Virus genome (UHGV): UHGV-0086716
Length of the DNA: 13,256 nt
Origin: a virus
Reading direction: 5' to 3' (one strand)
The notes under the pieces are model-generated. The model searched no databases, was not told the DNA's origin, and worked only from the letters and a program-made list of their open reading frames with translations. A program made the translations under genes and the position numbers. This document shows positions 1 to 12,902 of the stretch, piece after piece. Positions within the stretch are counted from its first letter, which is position 1. Every line of letters starts with the position of its first letter.

Positions 1-708
1 GCCTATCTTGAAGTCCGTCGTAACCGGCTTGGTGAACCCATTGCGCTTCGTCCGGCGCTGGCGAAATACACGCGGCGGGGCAGTGACCTTGATACGTACT
101 GGTACCTCAGTGATGACGGCTCTGAATACGCATTCCGGAAGGGGGCTGTGTGTCATGTGCTTAACCCCGATATCAACCAGGAAATCTACGGGATGCCGGA
201 ATATATCGGTGGCCTGCTTTCGGTGAATCTGTCGAACTCGGCGGATACGTTCCGCAAGCTCTACTATGACAACGGCTCACATGCCGGGTGCATTGTCTAT
301 GTTGGTGCCGCCCAGGCAAACGCTGAAAGCGTGGAGGCGGTAAAGAAAACGCTCACGGAATCCCGTGGCAAAGGTGCGTTCCGCAATATCCTTCTGCACG
401 CGCCAGGTGGTGGCAAGGATGGCGTGCAAATCCTGCCGTTCCAGCAAATCACCGCGAAGGATGAATTCCTGAACATCAAGGGGAGTGCACGCGACGATAT
501 CCTTGCTGCCCACCGTGTACCGCCTCAGCTGATGGGGGCGATGCCTGACGGTAATGCCGCGTTCGGTGACGTTGAGAAAGCGGCGAGGGTGTTTTTCATC
601 AACGAGCTGCAACCTGTCATGGAGGCCATGAAGCATGTCAATGAATGGCTTGGTGTTGAGGTGATGCGCTTTAATCCCTATGCGCTGCTTCAGGATGACG
701 CCAGCTGA
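1..708 (+). CDS. Phage portal protein (gpQ-like), C-terminal part, 5'-truncated by window edge
   Basis: Frame 1 is open from base 1 to TGA at 706-708. Protein-like translation; position and orientation (last late gene, pointing at the cos-side region) match P2 Q. Family assignment is by context, not by verified motif. Confidence 0.65.
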   Translation, partial: AYLEVRRNRLGEPIALRPALAKYTRRGSDLDTYWYLSDDGSEYAFRKGAVCHVLNPDINQEIYGMPEYIGGLLSVNLSNSADTFRKLYYDNGSHAGCIVYVGAAQANAESVEAVKKTLTESRGKGAFRNILLHAPGGGKDGVQILPFQQITAKDEFLNIKGSARDDILAAHRVPPQLMGAMPDGNAAFGDVEKAARVFFINELQPVMEAMKHVNEWLGVEVMRFNPYALLQDDAS

Positions 709-735
709 CGCGCTTCGCTTGTCGGCTGCTTCGCC

Positions 736-758
736 GGGGCATAAAAAATTTATGCCCC
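736..758 (+). terminator. Perfect 10-bp stem / 3-nt loop hairpin downstream of portal stop
   Basis: GGGGCATAAA-aaa-TTTATGCCCC, 28 nt after the portal stop. No T-run follows, so intrinsic-terminator function is uncertain. Confidence 0.35.
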
Positions 759-1083
759 GACTCTCCAGCTCCACCAACATAAAGCACATCTCAGCCCTTA
801 AATTATTAATCATACTTAACATTATGTTTTGCCGTGGTTTTTCCTCTACTTCATGCCATGTCTGCGGTGTGATGTCCCCGCGTTTAATCCTGACCCCGTA
901 AAACTCAATCAGACGCCTTCTGACGGCCTGTTTCTCTGACCATGTTTTGATGTGGTTTTTCAAAACTGGCTTCACTGCGTGCGTATCACGCGCAATACGC
1001 CCCCATATAAAGCAACCTGCCTTCCACCCCTCAATTCGGGCGCCCTTCCCTCGTCGCCTGCGCGCAGCGATCGCCTCGTTTTT

Positions 1084-1181
1084 CGTGCACCGTGCAAACC
1101 GGCCTCAGGCAGCGCCGTTACCGGGCTGAAAGGGTAAAAAATACATCAGAAAAATTGTGCAATTTCGTGCACTTTTGTGCA
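1084..1181. repeat. Array of five (C/T)GTGCA(C/A) motifs, three phased at exactly 10 bp
   Basis: GTGCA at 1085, 1092, 1157, 1167, 1177. The last three are ttGTGCAatttcGTGCActtttGTGCAc with helical-turn spacing. Lies in the non-coding region between the early-operon terminator and the portal gene, where cos is expected. Confidence 0.4.
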
Positions 1182-1188
1182 CTGAAAC

Positions 1189-1212
1189 AAACGCCCGGAA
1201 CAGGGCGTTTTT
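1189..1212 (-). terminator. Rho-independent terminator ending the leftward early/A operon (plausibly bidirectional)
   Basis: Stem AACGCCC (1190-1196) / GGGCGTT (1203-1209), loop ggaaca, flanked by T-rich sequence on both strands; directly follows the stop of the last cassette gene (1214). Confidence 0.6.
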
Positions 1213-1213
1213 C

Positions 1214-1543
1214 TCATTTCTGCTCTCCCTTGTGTTGTGCGTTCTCCCTGATTATGTCATTGCATAAATCCACGCACTCATTGCAGATCCAAACAGATGG
1301 TCCGGCAATAATCTGTCTGACATCGTACTGGCTTTTGTTGCAGAAGCTGCAATAAAGCGTCTTCCCGACTGAAGTTGGTGTTTTGCTGGGCTCTCCACAC
1401 ACCAGTCGTTCGATGTCTCTTTCGCGCCGAAGAGCGATCTGGCTGCATACAGCTATTTTTTGCAGGTTGATGTTTTCTTTTTTCGCCAGTGCTTCAATTT
1501 GATCAATCAGTCGCTGCGCTTTTTCTCTGTCAATATATTGCAT
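1214..1543 (-). CDS. Small protein (109 aa) with C-terminal ClpX-type C4 zinc-binding domain
   Basis: ATG at 1543 preceded by GGAG with 8-nt spacer (the track's GTG at 1552 is less likely). C-terminal [38 protein letters not shown] closely matches the N-terminal zinc-binding domain of ClpX as I recall it (C-x2-C-x19-C-x2-C). N-terminal ~60 aa looks helical. Confidence 0.75.
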
Positions 1544-1557
1544 TGCGCCCACTCCGA

Positions 1558-2107: not shown

Positions 2108-2524
2108 TCATGGTCTTTGTTGCCTGCGTGATTGCCTGTTGGCGGCCGAATGCACATAGCGGGCAATTGCCGCTTTTCGGTTAACGACGGCCAGCGTTCT
2201 TGCCAGCTCTTCGTTGAGTTTTCTGGTCTGTTTTTCGTGGTATGCCTGCATGATTTTTCCTACGGGAGTCAGTGGTTCAGGCTCTGATATGGCGCGACGA
2301 GGGCGCACGGCAACGATGAATGCGCTTCTGTCGGTGTTGATTCTTGCAGCCAGGATGTCGGTCATGACGGTATCTGTGTTGCGATCGTGGTTTGCGATCG
2401 TGATCTCCAGTTCGTCGCCTGGCTGTGGTCGAACACTGACGCCGCTCAGCATCAGTGCCGGAATGCGTCCACTCATGATGGCGCTGAAATCATGGCGCTG
2501 GAGTACGCAATGGAATCGTGTCAT
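2108..2524 (-). CDS. Hypothetical protein (138 aa), first gene after A
   Basis: ATG at 2524 overlaps the A stop (ATGA) and has GGAGGTG upstream inside the A 3' end. Segment ELEITIANHD...DILAARI weakly resembles the start of DinI (unverified). Confidence 0.6.
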   Translation of the reverse strand: MTRFHCVLQRHDFSAIMSGRIPALMLSGVSVRPQPGDELEITIANHDRNTDTVMTDILAARINTDRSAFIVAVRPRRAISEPEPLTPVGKIMQAYHEKQTRKLNEELARTLAVVNRKAAIARYVHSAANRQSRRQQRP

Positions 2525-5010
2525 GGGTTCACCTCCGGTTGATCTGCTGCCACCAGGCTTCGTGATTTCTCATCCCAGTGCACAATCCGCCCGTCAGGCA
2601 GGCGAACGCGTGCACCTCTGTGTACGGAAAGTGCTGCGCCACTGTGTGGCTCCTCGCCCGTCGTGCTCAGTGCCGACTTGATCACGGTGGTGGTGACGTC
2701 AGCCAGCGGCAATGCTGCACGCACATCTATGACGTCATCGGGCGTGGTGGGGCCGCCGGTTTTCACGGTTTTTGTGTCAGATGGCGCATCTTTCAGCTGC
2801 CTGGTGAGTTGTTTTCGCTCTGTGGGGGTCAGTGACCTTAACCACTCACCCAAATCACCTCCCGGGACGACCAGTTTTTGTTCTTTCCTGGTTTCCGGTG
2901 GTGGGGTTTTACCCTCTCCGGTGTCTGTTTTTTCATCATGGGGACAGTTATTGCCACGAGTCCAAGGGGCGACAAAGTCGCCCTGAAGGTCAAAACCATT
3001 TTCGTGGGCGCTGTCTTTCACTTCTGGTTTACGCCTTACCAGCTTCCACTTGTCCAGGTGGGTGCATACCCTGGAGGATTCCCCTTTGAGCGGTGACCAG
3101 ATGCCGTAAATCTGTGCGCGCTGTTCGCCGTAATCATTAGGCTCATCTGCGATGTCATAGGCGGTACGAATCAGATAATCTTTGCGCGGAACCAGCACGC
3201 CCCCCTGCTTCTCGGTGTAGGTGGCAAAACACCCGGCGTCAGCGGCAGCCAGTACCGCATCCATGGCATCGTCTTCCAGTCGTCCGGGGCCCTGTGGATT
3301 GCGGGCCATCTGGCAGGCAAGGCGGCGCAGCTCGCGCCATACCTGTCGGGACGGAATACCAAAGAACTGAAACTGTCGGACACGGTGCAGGCGTGCCCAG
3401 CCTATGGCGTGCTCCACGCTCTCAGCCATTGGTTTTCCTGATTCGTCGTCAATGCGTGGCTTACCTGTTTTCGGGTCGATGCCATCCACGGCGCGGCTGT
3501 CCAGGTTTTTCCCGATATAGGTGGCGATGTAGCTGGTTGGCGTGCCTTTTGAGCCGTCAATGTATTCCACCTTAAAGCGTGGTGTTATGTCGTCGCCCAG
3601 TTCCTGACGGTCTTCACGGATGGCGATGTCCCGGGCTGCGTTCTCTATAGCCTTTGCGTTATCCGGATGGGTGAAGACCAGCATGTGCCAGTGCACGGTG
3701 CCGTCATGGTGTGGCTCCACCGTGCGGACGCCATACCAGCGCAGGCCGTCGCGGTTCAGCTTTTTGCGGAGGGCGGCAAAGAACTTGTTGACCAGGTAAT
3801 CACTGGAATCGCGAATGGTGCTTCCGTCCCACTTAGGGTTCAGATAACCGCGCTCCGTCGTGGCGTGAAACCTTGATGGTGCGGTGATGGTCACAAATAA
3901 CACTGTGTCGCCACGGGCTTCTGCCAGCAGTTCCATACCCTTCGTGGTCGCCATCATCTCGGCCCTGCGATTGACCGGGTTACTGATGCCTGCGTAATAG
4001 ACGGATTCAAGGTCAATAGTGAAGCCGTCCTCGTTTTCCAGTTCGAAACGTTTCAGGAAGTCGCGGGTTTTCTCGCGTTGTGCGCGGAACTCGCCCAGTG
4101 CGTCCTTACTCAGGTAGGGCGATGTTTTTCTGGAAACCAGACCGGCAGCACGCAACTGTTCTTCCCGCCATTCGCGGCGCAACCGCCAGAGTTTGTGGTA
4201 CCACCAGTCTGCGCAGTTCAGGCGAAGGATGGCGCCTGGCAGTCGTTCAACATCCGGTTCCGTTCTCCGGTTCTTGTCTGTTCTCAGCGCTTCGTAATGC
4301 GGTGGTATGGTGTGCAGGTGTAGCGCCATGCGGGCCAGTACCGGATATGCCTTCAGCATTACATCCACTGTCATCTCACCATCGCTGGCCCCGAAACCGT
4401 CGCAAAGTTTTTCGAAGGTTCTGCTGAACAGTATGGCCGTCATGGCTGCCAGCATTCGTGTCCGGCGTTCATCGAGCTGCGGCAGGTAAAGCAGGTTATC
4501 CAGATTGTCGCGCCCGGCAAGGGAACGGTAAGCCGGAGTCAGCCAGCGGCTGTTAGTGCGCTCCAGTCGTTTGAATATTTCGCGCAGTGTTTCGCTCGCG
4601 TAGCGGTCTGCCTGCCAGTTTTCCTCCCCTTTACGGCGTTCTGACTCCTGTTTTTTGCGCAGGATACTGAGTTTTTTAATAAGCGGATCCCGCAGATAAG
4701 GCGGTAACAGGCGCAGCGTGTCGTAGGCTTCGCTTACTGCATCACGTGCCCGTGGGGCAATCGCGGCGATTACCCGGTCCCGTGCTTCCTGTGCGTCCAG
4801 GTGTTTGTTAATCAGGCGCCCAAGCCTGGTCGCGGCGAAGTCTGCATCACTCAGTTCGCCGTCGGGCATCGCGCGACGGAGTGCATCCACCCGGTAGGCG
4901 TCCAGCCATGAACGAAGGGCTGAGGTGGGGGCGGGTGTTTCCCTTCTCCTCTCCTCTTGCCCTATGGCATGGCGTGGTTGTTGCCAGTCCCGGATGTACT
5001 CAGCTGCCAC
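2521..5010 (-). CDS. A: Phage replication initiation protein, gene A family (rolling-circle endonuclease), 829 aa
   Basis: Size matches P2 gpA-type proteins. HUH-type motif (GTVHWHMLVF) and tandem-tyrosine region (YIATYIGKN). GTG start at 5010 with GGAG upstream, 6 nt after the upstream gene's stop. Confidence 0.88.
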   Translation of the reverse strand: MAAEYIRDWQQPRHAIGQEERRRETPAPTSALRSWLDAYRVDALRRAMPDGELSDADFAATRLGRLINKHLDAQEARDRVIAAIAPRARDAVSEAYDTLRLLPPYLRDPLIKKLSILRKKQESERRKGEENWQADRYASETLREIFKRLERTNSRWLTPAYRSLAGRDNLDNLLYLPQLDERRTRMLAAMTAILFSRTFEKLCDGFGASDGEMTVDVMLKAYPVLARMALHLHTIPPHYEALRTDKNRRTEPDVERLPGAILRLNCADWWYHKLWRLRREWREEQLRAAGLVSRKTSPYLSKDALGEFRAQREKTRDFLKRFELENEDGFTIDLESVYYAGISNPVNRRAEMMATTKGMELLAEARGDTVLFVTITAPSRFHATTERGYLNPKWDGSTIRDSSDYLVNKFFAALRKKLNRDGLRWYGVRTVEPHHDGTVHWHMLVFTHPDNAKAIENAARDIAIREDRQELGDDITPRFKVEYIDGSKGTPTSYIATYIGKNLDSRAVDGIDPKTGKPRIDDESGKPMAESVEHAIGWARLHRVRQFQFFGIPSRQVWRELRRLACQMARNPQGPGRLEDDAMDAVLAAADAGCFATYTEKQGGVLVPRKDYLIRTAYDIADEPNDYGEQRAQIYGIWSPLKGESSRVCTHLDKWKLVRRKPEVKDSAHENGFDLQGDFVAPWTRGNNCPHDEKTDTGEGKTPPPETRKEQKLVVPGGDLGEWLRSLTPTERKQLTRQLKDAPSDTKTVKTGGPTTPDDVIDVRAALPLADVTTTVIKSALSTTGEEPHSGAALSVHRGARVRLPDGRIVHWDEKSRSLVAADQPEVNP

Positions 5011-5016
5011 AGCGAT

Positions 5017-5391
5017 TTACTCCGCGATGCTGTTCAGTGCGCCGAGGCAAACAGCGGTCAGGCGCTGGATTTCCTGCGCGGTGGCTTCAGGGCTTGCCCG
5101 GCGGTGCGTAATGCGAAGACTGTCGGAAATGACTTCAATGAGCACCGACGACGGGCACTGACAGATGCAAACAACACTTGCAATGGTGTCTTCAATGCGG
5201 GAGAGCGTGTAATTGCCCTGGTTGCAGGCAAGCAGGTAGCGGCCGTCAATGACAGTCTGACCATCGGGAAGTTGTGGTGCTGTGGGTTGCAACTTCCTGT
5301 ACATCTCGAAGCGATGGGCAACGCGATCTCGTGTACCGGCGTCGCTTTCGGTCTGAATCAGGTAAGTTACAAAATCATCGATGAGAATCAT
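5017..5391 (-). CDS. Hypothetical protein (124 aa) immediately upstream of A
   Basis: ATG at 5391 with AGGAGG 9 nt upstream; protein-like composition; same strand as operon. Confidence 0.65.
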   Translation of the reverse strand: MILIDDFVTYLIQTESDAGTRDRVAHRFEMYRKLQPTAPQLPDGQTVIDGRYLLACNQGNYTLSRIEDTIASVVCICQCPSSVLIEVISDSLRITHRRASPEATAQEIQRLTAVCLGALNSIAE

Positions 5392-5463
5392 TGTGGCAAT
5401 CCTCCTGTTGCAGATGTGCGGAAGCCTCCCGCGTACAGATACGGGATAGCTTCCGGATGTGGT

Positions 5464-5685
5464 TTATCGGTGCTGGTTGATGAGGCTTTGCAGTTCTGCC
5501 AGATCTTCGGCGAGATAGCTGAAGACAGCAGCGCAGTAACGGTTTGATAGCGCGTGCGTGCGCTCATGCAGCATGTTGATGTGCATGATTTGCGCGACGC
5601 GTGTTGCGCGGAAAAGTCTGCGGTTGATTTCGCTGCGTATGTGAATACGCTCAGCGCGGGCGCGCTGTTGCTTGCGGTTTGCCAT
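5464..5685 (-). CDS. Small basic hypothetical protein (73 aa)
   Basis: ATG at 5685 with AGAGG upstream; arginine-rich N-terminus suggests nucleic-acid binding. Confidence 0.5.
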   Translation of the reverse strand: MANRKQQRARAERIHIRSEINRRLFRATRVAQIMHINMLHERTHALSNRYCAAVFSYLAEDLAELQSLINQHR

Positions 5686-5728
5686 GGTGTGGCCTCTGCG
5701 TTAGTAAGTTCTGAAAACTCACCATCCA

Positions 5729-5917
5729 GAGTTGAGAATCTCGGGGTGGCGAGACGTACGGGGTTCTCAACACCGGCTAACACAGGACCCGGCCCGACCG
5801 AAGTCGGCCCCGTACGCCCCGCCATAATTCTGACGCGAAAAAGACGTGGCGATACAGTACGCACAAAAAAACCGCTGGCGCGGCTGTGCGCTGTGTTAGT
5901 CAGCGGGTTGAGAATCC
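5729..5917. repeat. Structured non-coding island with GTTGAGAA(T/C)C repeats and nested perfect stems
   Basis: GTTGAGAATC at 5731-5740 and 5907-5916 (direct); inverse copy GTTCTCAAC at 5763-5771. Nested TCTCG/CGAGA (5739-5743 / 5750-5754). Perfect 9-bp stem CGTACGGGG / CCCCGTACG (5755-5763 / 5808-5816) enclosing CCGAC-cgaa-GTCGG (5794-5807). No ATG-initiated ORF with an RBS in this stretch. Confidence 0.45.
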
Positions 5918-5982
5918 CGGCACCCGTTTTATGAGGTGCAGCGGAAATGTAACCTGACTCAACGAGCGCTGGCAAGCGGTTT

Positions 5983-6010
5983 TTGTGTTGCGTGCTGAAG
6001 TATGTATAAT
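5983..6010 (+). promoter_or_regulatory. Sigma70-type promoter for the plus-strand embedded gene
   Basis: -35 TTGTGT (5983-5988), 16-bp spacer, -10 TATAAT (6005-6010) preceded by TG; about 60 nt upstream of the ATG at 6072. Confidence 0.5.
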
Positions 6011-6071
6011 CGCGGCGCAAAAATGGAATGCGCCGAAGGATAGCGGCGTTTATTAACAATGGAGGTTGTTT

Positions 6072-6539
6072 ATGCCTGTTGCTATGGAGCAAGCAGACAA
6101 GAAGATTTTTTTCCATCTGTGGTACAGCTACTGGCTGGAAGAGATGGTTTTCATACTCAGCAATAAAGCCGCTGCCGTGTTGCGCGCCGGGGCACTGATT
6201 GCTGCGGTATTCTCCTTTCTTCTCGTAGGTTTTCCCGTCCTGATGAGCCTTTGCGGGCTGGCGTTTTTTGTTTTTTCCTGGTTTTGCAGCAAGTGTGAAT
6301 TCGTCGCCGAACTGGCGTGCTGGCAGAAACAGAGCTACCTTCGTCTGATTACGCAAAGGGATTCCATGAGCACTGAACGCCTCATTGAGCGCATTCTGTA
6401 TCTGGAAGAAACGAACAGCGCATTCATGAAGGCGTTTGTCAGGCCTGCAAAAAACAAAGCGAGCGCATCTGTTGGTCTGTCTGCCAGCGAGCATTTGCGT
6501 TACTCCGAAAGGTTAATCTGCTGGTTGTGCGGCTTCTGA
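6072..6539 (+). CDS. Embedded plus-strand gene: predicted membrane protein (155 aa) with cytoplasmic C-terminal domain
   Basis: ATG at 6072 with GGAGG 6 nt upstream and own promoter. Two hydrophobic helices (AAAVLRAGALIAAVFSFLLVGFPVLM, SLCGLAFFVFSWF); codon usage looks enteric. Opposite strand to the surrounding operon; 3' end overlaps the DUF4406-like gene by 27 nt. Confidence 0.6.
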   Translation: MPVAMEQADKKIFFHLWYSYWLEEMVFILSNKAAAVLRAGALIAAVFSFLLVGFPVLMSLCGLAFFVFSWFCSKCEFVAELACWQKQSYLRLITQRDSMSTERLIERILYLEETNSAFMKAFVRPAKNKASASVGLSASEHLRYSERLICWLCGF

Positions 6540-7394: not shown

Positions 7395-8321
7395 TCAGCA
7401 GTCCGGACAGTAGCCACCGCCATGGCGACCGCATGGGTCGCACTGTTTCAGGGTGGCGATAACCTCCGGTGCGGGTTCGCTGGTTCTTGCGCCAACGCTT
7501 CTCGGTACCTGGATGCAGTTCATCCGGTATCCCCGATAAATGCGCCGTGTTTCCGGTGTGTCGGAATTGGAGATGGTGATGCTGGTCATGCCGCCCGTTT
7601 CCTGTGAAAGACGGTCAAGTGCCGCTCTCAGGCGAACGTGCTCGTGTTCATCGAATGGTTTTCCGTAGGCGGTGAAATTGTTCTTGCCACTGAATCGCAG
7701 GTAAGGGGGATCGCAGTACACGCAAAGCGTGTTGCCCATGCCGAACAGGTGACTGGCAGAGTTCAGCGTATCCTTAAAATCTGCGTGGATAAGCAGCGTT
7801 CGGGTGCTGTTTGCCTTGTCTGCAAATGCGCGGATTTCCCGCTCAGGGAAGTAGGGCTTGCGGTAGCAGCCGAAAGGCACGTTAAAGTCACCTTTTCCGT
7901 TCACGCGGAACAAACCGTTAAAGCTGTGTCGGTTCAGGTACAAAAACATGGCGGCCAGTCGCAGTTCACGGCGGTCGCTTATTCCCGTTCTGCTACTCAG
8001 GAAGGCATGATTCTCTGCGTTAAAGGTTTCGCGAATGATGAGATAGTCACCCCTGTTGTTGTGGTTCAGGAACAGGGTTTTCGCCTCGTCGATCAGGCTG
8101 TCGGTGTTGTCCCTGACTTGCCGGTAGAAATTGATCAGCGCACCATTGGAATCCCCCAGGATGTAGCGCTTGTAACTGGTGTTCATGAATACCGATGCGC
8201 CGCCCGCAAACGGCTCAACCAGGCAGTCTGCTTCTGGCAGATGCGCCTTCAGTGTGTTCATGATGCGGCTTTTTCCGCCCACCCATTTCAGCGGTGTGCC
8301 GGATAACAGCTCTTTGCTCAT
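7395..8321 (-). CDS. dam: DNA adenine methyltransferase (Dam-like), 308 aa, with short Cys-rich C-terminal tail
   Basis: KWVGGK, EPFAGGASVF (SAM-binding), FNVPFG, DPPY catalytic motif, NFTAY and ISNSDT all align with E. coli Dam as I recall it. AAGAGG RBS 7 nt upstream. Extra tail CDPCGRHGGGYCPDC. Confidence 0.9.
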   Translation of the reverse strand: MSKELLSGTPLKWVGGKSRIMNTLKAHLPEADCLVEPFAGGASVFMNTSYKRYILGDSNGALINFYRQVRDNTDSLIDEAKTLFLNHNNRGDYLIIRETFNAENHAFLSSRTGISDRRELRLAAMFLYLNRHSFNGLFRVNGKGDFNVPFGCYRKPYFPEREIRAFADKANSTRTLLIHADFKDTLNSASHLFGMGNTLCVYCDPPYLRFSGKNNFTAYGKPFDEHEHVRLRAALDRLSQETGGMTSITISNSDTPETRRIYRGYRMNCIQVPRSVGARTSEPAPEVIATLKQCDPCGRHGGGYCPDC

Positions 8322-11610: not shown

Positions 11611-12603
11611 ATGTCGATTAAGCAACTCAAAGACGGGCGTTATAAGGTTGATGTAAGGCCGCAAGGGGCGGAAGGAAAGCGGATCCGTAAGATTTTTACC
11701 CTGAAGTCAAAGGCACAGGAGTTTGAAAGGTATGTTTTGCAGAATTTCCACGATAAACCGTGGCAGGCCAAGCCAGCTGATCAGCGTCGGTTATCCGAAC
11801 TGATAGATGCCTGGTGGGTGCTTGATGGTCGGAATCAGCCTTACGGGGATACTTACAGGGTCAGGCTGGAAAAAATAAACCGTGAGATGAGGGACCCCCG
11901 CGCCAGTGAGATGACGCGAAAGTTTATGCTCGGGTATCGTTCAGATAAATTACAGGCCGGATTAATGCCCTCCAGTGTTAATCGTGATTTGTGCGCCTTG
12001 TCTGCAATGTTTACCGCGCTGATTGATGCGGAGGTTTTCCATAATGAAAACCCGGTGCGTGGAATACGTAAGCTCAAGGTCAGGAATACAGAAATGGCCT
12101 TTCTTTCAGATGATGAGATTGATCGGCTCCTTGAGCGACTCGAGGGTGATGCGCGTCGCGTTGCTGTTCTGTGTCTTTCCACTGGCGCAAGGTGGGGGGA
12201 AGCGGCTGGTTTGCGTGGTGAGCATATCGTTGGTAACCGCGTAATGTTCTTTAACACAAAGAATGGAAAATCCCGCGCAGTTCCTGTTTCTGATACGGTG
12301 CTTTCGTTGATAAAAACCCGAAAAACTGGGCTATTGTACCAGGCTGATTACATCCGTTTTCGGGAGATCCTTCAGGAGGTGAAGCCGGACTTGCCGAAAG
12401 GGCAGGCCACCCATGTCATGCGTCATACATTCGCTACACATTTCATGATGAATGGCGGAAATATCGTTACGCTACAACGAATCCTGGGCCATGCCACGAT
12501 TCAACAAACGATGACGTATGCGCATTTTTCGCCGGACTTTTTACAGGATGCAATCAGCTTTAATCCGCTGGCTGAAAGTGTCCATAAACTGTCCATCGAT
12601 TAG
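11611..12603 (+). CDS. int: Tyrosine integrase, P2 Int-like (330 aa)
   Basis: GGAGGGG RBS 6 nt upstream. Catalytic-region pattern LCLSTGARWGEAA, HVMRHTFATHFMMNGGNIVTLQRILGH, TMTYAHF (R...HxxR...Y). Last phage gene before host DNA. Confidence 0.92.
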   Translation: MSIKQLKDGRYKVDVRPQGAEGKRIRKIFTLKSKAQEFERYVLQNFHDKPWQAKPADQRRLSELIDAWWVLDGRNQPYGDTYRVRLEKINREMRDPRASEMTRKFMLGYRSDKLQAGLMPSSVNRDLCALSAMFTALIDAEVFHNENPVRGIRKLKVRNTEMAFLSDDEIDRLLERLEGDARRVAVLCLSTGARWGEAAGLRGEHIVGNRVMFFNTKNGKSRAVPVSDTVLSLIKTRKTGLLYQADYIRFREILQEVKPDLPKGQATHVMRHTFATHFMMNGGNIVTLQRILGHATIQQTMTYAHFSPDFLQDAISFNPLAESVHKLSID

Positions 12604-12718
12604 TTGTAACTTGTGCTTATTTGCTCCCCTTGTTTTGATTTACTCATTGAAAAATAAGCAAATCATCAAGGGGAGTAAGTAGCGTTAAACCTCCTGCGGG
12701 CGCTTTTTTTGTCTCCCT
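12604..12718. other. Prophage/host junction containing an att-like core
   Basis: GAAAAATAAGCaaatcatcAAGGGGAG (12649-12675) resembles the P2 att core as I recall it. An upstream segment (12612-12630) carries reverse-complement copies of the same sub-motifs. T7 run at 12704-12710. Confidence 0.4.
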
Positions 12719-12732
12719 TTGATACCGAACAA
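12719..12732 (+). promoter_or_regulatory. FNR-type binding site upstream of dmsA
   Basis: TTGAT-accg-AACAA matches FNR consensus TTGAT-N4-ATCAA at 9 of 10 positions, 171 bp upstream of the dmsA ATG; dmsA is a known FNR-activated anaerobic gene. Confidence 0.5.
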
Positions 12733-12902
12733 TAATTACTCCTCACTTACACGTAATACTACTTTCGAGTGAAAATCTACCTATCTCTTTGATTTTCAAA
12801 TTATTCGATGTATACAAGCCTATATAGCGATCTGCTATAGAAATAATTACACAATACGGTTTGTTACTGGAATCAATCGTGAGCAAGCTTGAGTGAGCCA
12901 TT

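Follow-up and report, generated by a model that had tools for sequence, protein, structure and literature searches.

The stretch of DNA analysed here (13,256 nucleotides of the virus genome UHGV-0086716, hereafter the window) begins inside a gene. Its first 705 bases carry the last 235 codons for a portal protein related to P2 gpQ; this 3' part of the gene occupies positions 1..708 on the plus strand (open from base 1, with the stop codon at 706-708). A tblastn search with this portal retrieved the portal proteins of 479 phage records, including P2-like Peduoviridae, and the gene is annotated as a portal in P88 and in E. coli prophages. Xuanwuvirus P88-like and Novemvirus phages have portals that are 69-73% identical to it, and the P2 portal is approximately 44% identical, the latter value indicating a different genus-level lineage, nearer to Xuanwuvirus and Novemvirus. 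The gene is followed on the plus strand by a hairpin at 735..759 (an 11-bp perfect inverted repeat with arms CGGGGCATAAA and TTTATGCCCCG), which is 98% identical in P88-like phages and is the counterpart of tQ, the terminator that P2 has annotated at this place.

Farther on, a bidirectional intrinsic terminator at 1183..1216, detected by terminator scan and folding (-14 kcal/mol and z -3.3 on the plus strand; -16.4 kcal/mol and z -4.4 on the minus strand), closes a leftward accessory operon. The gene next to it, on the minus strand at 1214..1552, encodes a ClpX-type C4 zinc-finger protein of 112 amino acids (Pfam PF06689, E = 1.2e-17); it is the first cargo gene of the cos-adjacent hotspot and lies outside the packaging signal discussed below. 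The second gene of the hotspot, a MarR-like winged-helix protein, occupies 1558-1974 on the same strand. P88 carries a similar ClpX-like gene at the same place, and the 112-residue protein consists of little beyond the ClpX C4 zinc finger; it may be a ClpX mimic or adaptor residing in a defence-gene hotspot. The minus strand continues with the P2 replication protein gpA (2521-5010), a D12-class N6-adenine DNA methyltransferase (7395-8321; PF02086, E = 6e-53), an exonuclease and a Cox-like protein, and an integrase follows on the plus strand (11611..12603). The window is a P2-like prophage, containing the portal end, cos, accessory genes, gpA and integrase; the terminase genes lie outside it. 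This is the P2 gene order in reverse, so that positions 760-1213, between the 3' end of the portal gene and the accessory and early region, correspond to the position of cos in P2 and 186. In P2, the defence-gene hotspot is located between cos and gpA (PMC9122126).

Five exact copies of the motif YGTGCAM are found in this region, all on the plus strand: CGTGCAC at 1084-1090, CGTGCAA at 1091-1097, TGTGCAA at 1156-1162, CGTGCAC at 1166-1172 and TGTGCAC at 1176-1182, with start-to-start spacings of 7, 65, 10 and 10 bp. The initial annotation had described five (C/T)GTGCA(C/A) copies in about 100 bp, three of them (those at 1156, 1166 and 1176) at exact 10-bp spacing, in non-coding DNA on the cos side; all of this is borne out, the region adjoining the cos side of the portal gene and no single reading frame staying open in every one of the 118 distinct homologous variants. 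The repeated sequence extends beyond the unit first described: TTTCGTGCAC is identical at 1081-1090 and 1163-1172 and is followed by TTTTGTGCAC at 1173-1182. Over the window as a whole the motif is not enriched (15 copies found, 12.1 expected). We evaluated the cluster against 2000 dinucleotide-preserving shuffles of the window: at least four copies on one strand within 100 bp occurred in none of them (five are observed), three copies occurred in 25, and the phased arrangement GTGCA-N5-GTGCA-N5-GTGCA also occurred in none.

The boxes fall into a proximal and a distal group, for which we give positions relative to the first base of a candidate 19-nucleotide cohesive-end sequence (see below). 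Proximal box 1 is a T-run joined to CGTGCAC (1079..1090, plus strand), with its TGCA core at 1086-1089 (-31), and proximal box 2 is CGTGCAA (1091..1097, plus strand), with its core at 1093-1096 (-38). The distal array (1150..1182, plus strand) consists of an A-run and the boxes TGTGCAA (1156), CGTGCAC (1166) and TGTGCAC (1176), with cores at -103, -113 and -123; we refer to the outermost of these as box 3. In the middle of the 72-bp spacer that separates the groups is an island, GGGCTGAAAGGG (1123..1134, plus strand), which is kept in phages and in portal-less satellites and which may be a further protein contact or bend site in cos.

The cohesive ends of P2, 186 and P4 are 5' extensions of 19 nucleotides. 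The candidate counterpart in the window lies on the minus strand at 1040..1058, where the letters as given are GCGCCCTTCCCTCGTCGCC; its sequence, the reverse complement GGCGACGAGGGAAGGGCGC, is GC-rich and identical to the P2 sequence GGCGAGGCGGGGAAAGCAC at 13 of 19 positions. Its register could be shifted by 2 (to 1042-1060), the nick positions being predicted from sequence comparison. Positions 1040-1065 form a strongly conserved block in an alignment of two E. coli prophages, phage P88 and Enterobacter phage phiT5282H, and the candidate 19-mer also falls in the most conserved block across 65 relatives (described below). Related lineages have GGTGACGGGGGAACAGCCC or GGCGAGGCGGGGGAGCAAG at this position. 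Directly beside the candidate 19-mer lies TGCGCGC (1059..1065), where CCTGCGCGC is invariant in the relatives. The equivalent (T/C)GCGCGC of P2, 186 and P4 is on the portal-side flank of the 19-mer (+19 to +25), whereas that of the window is on the box-side flank.

The initial annotation had not found a canonical P2 or 186 19-mer and had suggested that packaging signals might differ from those of P2. A diverged 19-mer does exist, with TGCGCGC beside it, and the packaging signals are therefore of the same kind as those of P2: their architecture matches the one seen in P2, 186 and P4, the differences being confined to the flanks of the boxes and the letters of the 19-mer. The relation is not visible to megablast and blastn searches against phages, which gave no P2 or 186 match for the cos stretch; matches in such searches were limited to the portal end and short pieces, and the relation had to be found by anchoring the comparison on cos. 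In ungapped alignment, the match of the window to the 55-bp core of 186 and P2 is low outside the TGCA box with its A-run, the 19-mer and the GCGCGC motif. LR595891, the one virion-derived record checked, starts at an arbitrary point between the boxes. Two loci of the window's own portal clade (L309 from Yokenella and L372 from Brenneria; approximately 71-72% portal identity) combine a P2-like 19-mer, GGCGAGGCGGGGGAGCAAG, with window-type GTGCA boxes, indicating that the letters of the cohesive end and the type of box evolve independently.

On the portal side of cos there is, in addition, a 20-nucleotide direct repeat, ATGTTTTGnnGTGGTTTTTC, at 824-843 and 942-961 (plus strand; 90% identical, 118 bp apart). 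It is kept in the closest E. coli prophages, is not alignable in P88 and lies outside the module that satellites share.

With P2, 186 and P4 set in one orientation and positions counted from the first base of the 19-mer, TGCA cores are located at -123, -111, -101 and -29 in P2 and at -124, -111, -101, -35 and -29 in both 186 and P4, as compared with -123, -113, -103, -38 and -31 in the window. All five boxes of the window thus have positional counterparts among the three genomes, and on the P2 map the boxes sit toward the right end. In common with these cos regions, the window has a GC-rich 19-mer (GGCGA.G.GGG.A type) located where the portal gene gives way to the right-end accessory genes; a GCGCGC motif adjoins it, though not on the side where P2 has it. 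A T- or A-run with a TGCA box stands approximately 30 bp from the 19-mer, and three boxes are approximately 100-125 bp away. The window differs in the box flanks (GTGCAC or GTGCAA rather than ATGCAT-like), in the spacing of the triplet (10+10 bp rather than the 10+12/13 of P2, 186 and P4) and in the position of the proximal box, which is 2 bp farther from the presumed 19-mer.

P2 and P4 are described as having only cos in common (PMC9122126; PMC9594776). Allowing at most three mismatches, their identity block runs from -29 to +25 (55 bp) and starts at the proximal TGCAT, the counterpart of proximal box 1 found at -29 in P2, 186 and P4; outside this block on the box side, the only letters common to P2 and P4 are those of the distal boxes. 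A 55-bp core of P2/P4 cos has been described as the packaging requirement (PMC9122126; PMC9594776). The proximal box forms the outer edge of that published core and the distal triplet lies outside it, and the triplet may therefore be dispensable or only stimulatory. The '55-bp core' itself reportedly goes back to work of Ziermann and Calendar from 1990. A longer cos flank raised transduction of P2 cosmids by more than 1000-fold (PMC9594776). The window site is a lineage variant of the P2-family cos region, and its proximal box is already inside the published core.

Proximal box 2 (1091) shows no conservation in the P88 lineage; proximal doublets occur elsewhere as GTGCACTTGCA (in the loci L030, L054 and L056) and as TGCAACTGCAT (at -35/-29 in 186 and P4). 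In the Burkholderia phage phi52237 there is a proximal TTTTAATGCAC, and several KTGCR boxes, mostly about one helical turn apart, stand at 75-125 bp from the core. Searches for a cos-like core within 2 kb of the portal located none in Ralstonia YO155_1, Burkholderia FLC5, a Zymomonas element, Pseudomonas BIBS67, Aeromonas phiO18P, Vibrio K139 or Klebsiella ST13-OXA48phi12.1, and these seven are uninformative.

Across 65 non-redundant relatives gathered via the portal gene, conservation is concentrated in four islands (the core, of the TCCCCCGTCACCTGCGCGC type; TTTTTTTGTGCA; GGGCnGnAAGGG; and the distal triplet) and falls to background directly past box 3. The sequence TTTTTYGTGCA, which comprises proximal box 1, is 90-100% conserved in this set, and GGGCnGnAAGGG, which lies within the spacer, is 60-90% conserved among phages. 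A triplet of the form AAAAATTGTGCAAAWTTGTGCRCnWTTGTGCR was found at 186 loci in 44 sequence variants, with the 10-bp spacing in all of them. In 172 of 175 loci, 72 bp separate the proximal TGCA from the inner distal one, a distance also found in P2, 186, P4 and the window; the spacers of these loci comprise 94 distinct sequences with pairwise identities down to 28% (median 57%). Among the matches listed for loci with a P88-type core, the core-to-triplet distance is constant in 106 of 115, and the portal-to-core distance ranges from 201 to 936 bp. Assuming a helical repeat of approximately 10.3 bp, simple arithmetic places boxes at offsets of 0, 72, 82 and 92 bp on one face of the DNA.

Conservation ends sharply on the outer side. 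Approximately 70 unrelated classes of downstream junction begin directly past box 3, and the sharing of prefixes between classes is not above that in a null comparison. In the window, homology with other prophages ends at 1181, and the terminator described above begins at the first base past the conserved cos module. Taken from the core to box 3, the putative packaging module of P2-like phages and satellites is approximately 150 bp by these comparisons, larger than the 55-bp core, and both the candidate cos and the edge of the accessory-gene (defence) hotspot can be placed to the nucleotide in the window; what had looked like a phage without a P2-type cos has one.

Satellites carry the same arrangement. 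In 64 distinct P4-like psu-to-cos segments the boxes are in place, and P4-like satellites in which Psu is only 62-65% identical and the spacers have diverged still carry them; in one P4-like satellite the whole box set is shifted by a 6-bp insertion. A pattern scan covering one genome per species gave 33 matches with the full cos architecture, all in Enterobacterales, 23 of which have an upstream portal gene. At five of the scanned loci there is space for a portal gene and none is present: these elements are from Escherichia sp., Klebsiella indica, Izhakiella, Candidatus Erwinia dacicola and a 12.7-kb contig whose ends repeat after approximately 12.2 kb. Their genes for an integrase, an 889-residue primase, and Ogr/Delta-like zinc-finger and AlpA-like proteins identify them as phage satellites. 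Similarity of the five to phages extends from approximately 15 bp on the portal side of the core through box 3, with nothing recognisable beyond, and the shared stretch contains the proximal box, the GGGCGGAAAGGGCA island and the triplet at unchanged spacing. Satellite DNA needs the helper's terminase for packaging, which would account for the exact copying of the module from core to box 3. Among the first 120 matches in IMG/VR there were no satellites with a P88-type core, all of these matches being phages, and it was the pattern scan alone that brought the satellites to light.

The contig QAKE01000006.1 (loci L339 and L355; assigned to a Bacillota MAG bin) is an element of approximately 12.2 kb with repeated ends and the same cos module, and encodes an integrase, an 889-residue primase, Ogr/Delta-like and AlpA-like regulators and a major head protein similar to P2 gpN; no portal gene was detected in it. 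It looks like a P4-like satellite with its own capsid protein, and the contig is probably mis-binned enterobacterial DNA.

The boxes are real and non-random, they are positionally homologous across the P2 family, their geometry is fixed, and they form the outer limit of a module that satellites have inherited together with them. From this we think it likely that the GTGCA boxes are part of the cos packaging signal of a P2-like prophage, and specific binding by the small terminase subunit is a proposal that we regard as about evenly balanced. The best reading of the boxes, by analogy, is as the accessory or recognition half of cos, with a role like that of lambda cosB, and the array as a whole is best read as an ancient feature of the P2 family, a putative cosB-like array for recognition by terminase. 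The initial annotation had proposed sites for protein on one face of the DNA that serve packaging rather than transcription: this main idea has strong comparative support from the counterparts in P2, 186 and P4, the 72-bp geometry kept over 94 spacers, the outer limit of conservation, the satellites and the absence of a predicted promoter, and the part that names terminase as the binder is one that we infer, as we do the choice of subunit, the wrapping of DNA, the exact nick positions, and whether the distal array is required or only stimulatory. We found no evidence on terminase binding to P2-family boxes in the accessible literature.

A module of this kind would start approximately 15 bp beyond the 19-mer (1040-1058) in the direction of the portal gene, would end with the last box (1182) and would combine the nicking site, one or two proximal boxes approximately 30 bp away, the 72-bp spacer and three boxes one helical turn apart. 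Terminase, most likely by way of an oligomeric small (gpM-type) DNA-recognition subunit, would sit on the boxes along one face of the DNA; by wrapping or looping the spacer, the bound subunits would keep the distal boxes close to the proximal ones, and the large (gpP-type) nuclease subunit would thereby be placed for staggered cuts at the 19-mer.

Lambda cosB contains the sites R3-I1-R2-R1, which are bound by the small terminase subunit gpNu1 together with IHF. Like cosB, the window has several short repeats clustered within approximately 50-170 bp on one side of the nicking site, which would anchor terminase and depend on a defined geometry. There is no sequence similarity between the two, and the R sites of lambda are 16 bp long, with an inverted pair around an IHF bend; furthermore, cosB is at the first-packaged end, next to the terminase genes, whereas in the window the terminase genes are not adjacent, and binding is a prediction for the P2 family. 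The right end of P2 DNA is reported to sit at the tail (Chattoraj and Inman, 1974); if so, the boxes would belong to the end packaged last, which would set them apart from lambda cosB. Recognition by a series of very short repeats in helical phase, as opposed to one long site, is also known from P1 pac (seven TGATCA/G hexamers that flank the cut and are bound by PacA) and from SPP1 pacL/pacR (phased boxes bound by G1P), and the window resembles these in that respect. Both are headful systems with imprecise cuts, whereas the boxes of the window are on one side of a precise cos cut. The P1 boxes are also Dam-methylation sensors placed on both sides of the cut; those of the window contain no GATC, and no link between the repeats and the methyltransferase of the window is therefore apparent.

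A stronger version of the proposal concerns the distal array in particular: three phased TGCA boxes as an essential, undescribed part of cos at which terminase docks, with exactly 72 bp between it and the proximal box. The array would be common to phages ranging from those of Burkholderia to enterobacterial ones, would have been taken over by two or more kinds of satellite and might, in contrast to lambda cosB, lie on the end packaged last. Taken jointly, we consider this possible but somewhat short of probable. The accessible literature (to which the 1990 work of Ziermann and Calendar does not belong) makes no mention of the distal triplet, the invariant 72-bp spacing or the core-to-box-3 extent, and we do not claim that any of the three would be new to specialists.

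Several other explanations of the boxes were weighed. The protein on the boxes might not be terminase; it could be an architectural factor of the host or a different DNA-binding protein of the phage, with a task in bending or organising cos DNA or in regulation at the genome end, and only the 55-bp core would then confer packaging specificity. This would suit the literature, which names the 55-bp core only, and a conserved factor would explain why boxes are conserved even though the 19-mers differ (between the window, P88 and the P2-like sequences in Yokenella and Brenneria). Against it, satellites that exploit helper packaging copy the boxes with their exact spacing, as expected of a packaging determinant, and the constant 72 bp between them and the nicking-site side connects them with the function of cos; TGCA-centred boxes are also not known to fit the consensus of IHF, Fis, CRP or DnaA. 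We consider a non-terminase binder unlikely.

The abrupt end of homology at the same nucleotide past box 3, in approximately 70 junction classes, raises the question of whether the distal boxes are a recombination site or hotspot boundary for the exchange of cargo cassettes in the cos-adjacent defence hotspot, the more so as the P2 hotspot abuts the end of box 3 (PMC9122126). The sharp boundary would equally arise from purifying selection on an essential element that lies beside freely replaceable DNA, and the boxes of portal-less satellites stand beside integrase and primase genes. In P4, the boxes are between psu and cos, but the hotspot is across cos (PMC9122126). A recombination site would, moreover, have no need of a fixed 72-bp distance to the proximal copy and the 19-mer. 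Site-specific recombination has reportedly been proposed for the 'TO region' (Nilsson et al., 2004), and we regard it as quite improbable as the explanation of the boxes.

Because the palindromic cores stand 10 bp apart, a potential to form hairpins is an automatic by-product of the array, and this bears on the suggestion that the boxes act as hairpins or cruciforms of palindromic GTGCAC, either as a back-up terminator that shields cos against transcripts from the cargo genes or as a structure formed under supercoiling (the DNA packaged by P2-type phages is a covalently closed circle; PMC2231350). Pairing is possible between boxes 2 and 3 of the window (-10.1 kcal/mol, z -2.4 to -2.9), and a weak terminator-like site appears in the scan; in P4, boxes 1 and 2 form a hairpin of -19.6 kcal/mol followed by a T-run, and in 186 boxes 1 and 3 pair. 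The pairing partners vary by lineage, however, and no significant structure is predicted in P2, in L046-type relatives or in Burkholderia phi52237 (z -1.2 to +0.35). The window hairpin also has no direct T-run on the strand transcribed from the cargo genes. The real terminator is at 1189-1210, and the proximal box has no pairing partner. An intrinsic terminator made of the boxes was accordingly rejected (its hairpin partners are lineage-specific and are absent in P2), and structure as their function appears very improbable to us. After psu in P4, where the outer boxes form a strong hairpin with a T-run, conservation could partly reflect termination.

An origin of the cluster by chance or base composition, or a place for it within a coding gene, might be argued from the missing window-wide enrichment and from the mechanical ORFs 947..1129, 952..1137 and 1092..1355 (all on the plus strand) that overlap the region; these ideas are refuted by the shuffles, by conservation in hundreds of loci and by the frame check on the homologous variants. 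A role as promoter or operator was rejected as well: no sigma-70 -35/-10 site is predicted in 700-1400, and the neighbouring genes vary in identity and orientation while the boxes stay, in agreement with the initial annotation, which had suggested packaging sites rather than transcription elements. A tRNA scan found nothing in the box region.

Should the boxes be required, the poor performance of short cos fragments as P2/P4 cosmids, a point of relevance to gene delivery by phages, would be explained. The boxes would also offer a simple signature by which cos sites, and satellites that carry them, could be recognised in genome sequences, and a tractable system for the study of how terminase reads phased mini-repeats. 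Should the distal array in particular be essential, it would mark where cos, and with it the P2 defence hotspot, truly has its outer border; it would also predict the satellites that a helper is able to package and supply a design rule for P2/P4 cosmid vectors.

At the gathering threshold, the Rfam covariance models have no match in 700-1300 and three elsewhere in the window. A C4 antisense RNA (5742-5829, 77.8 bits) and an isrK Hfq-binding RNA (5865-5939, 62.3 bits), both on the minus strand, fall within the mechanical ORF 5388..6494 (368 residues, with no Pfam match); this ORF may be partly wrong, or the P2-like early region may contain an antisense immunity module of the P1/P7 type. The third is a full-length match to the enterobacterial small RNA STnc130 (12678-12812, minus strand, 122 bits) just past the integrase gene; this match probably marks, or lies close to, the attachment site or the junction with host DNA.
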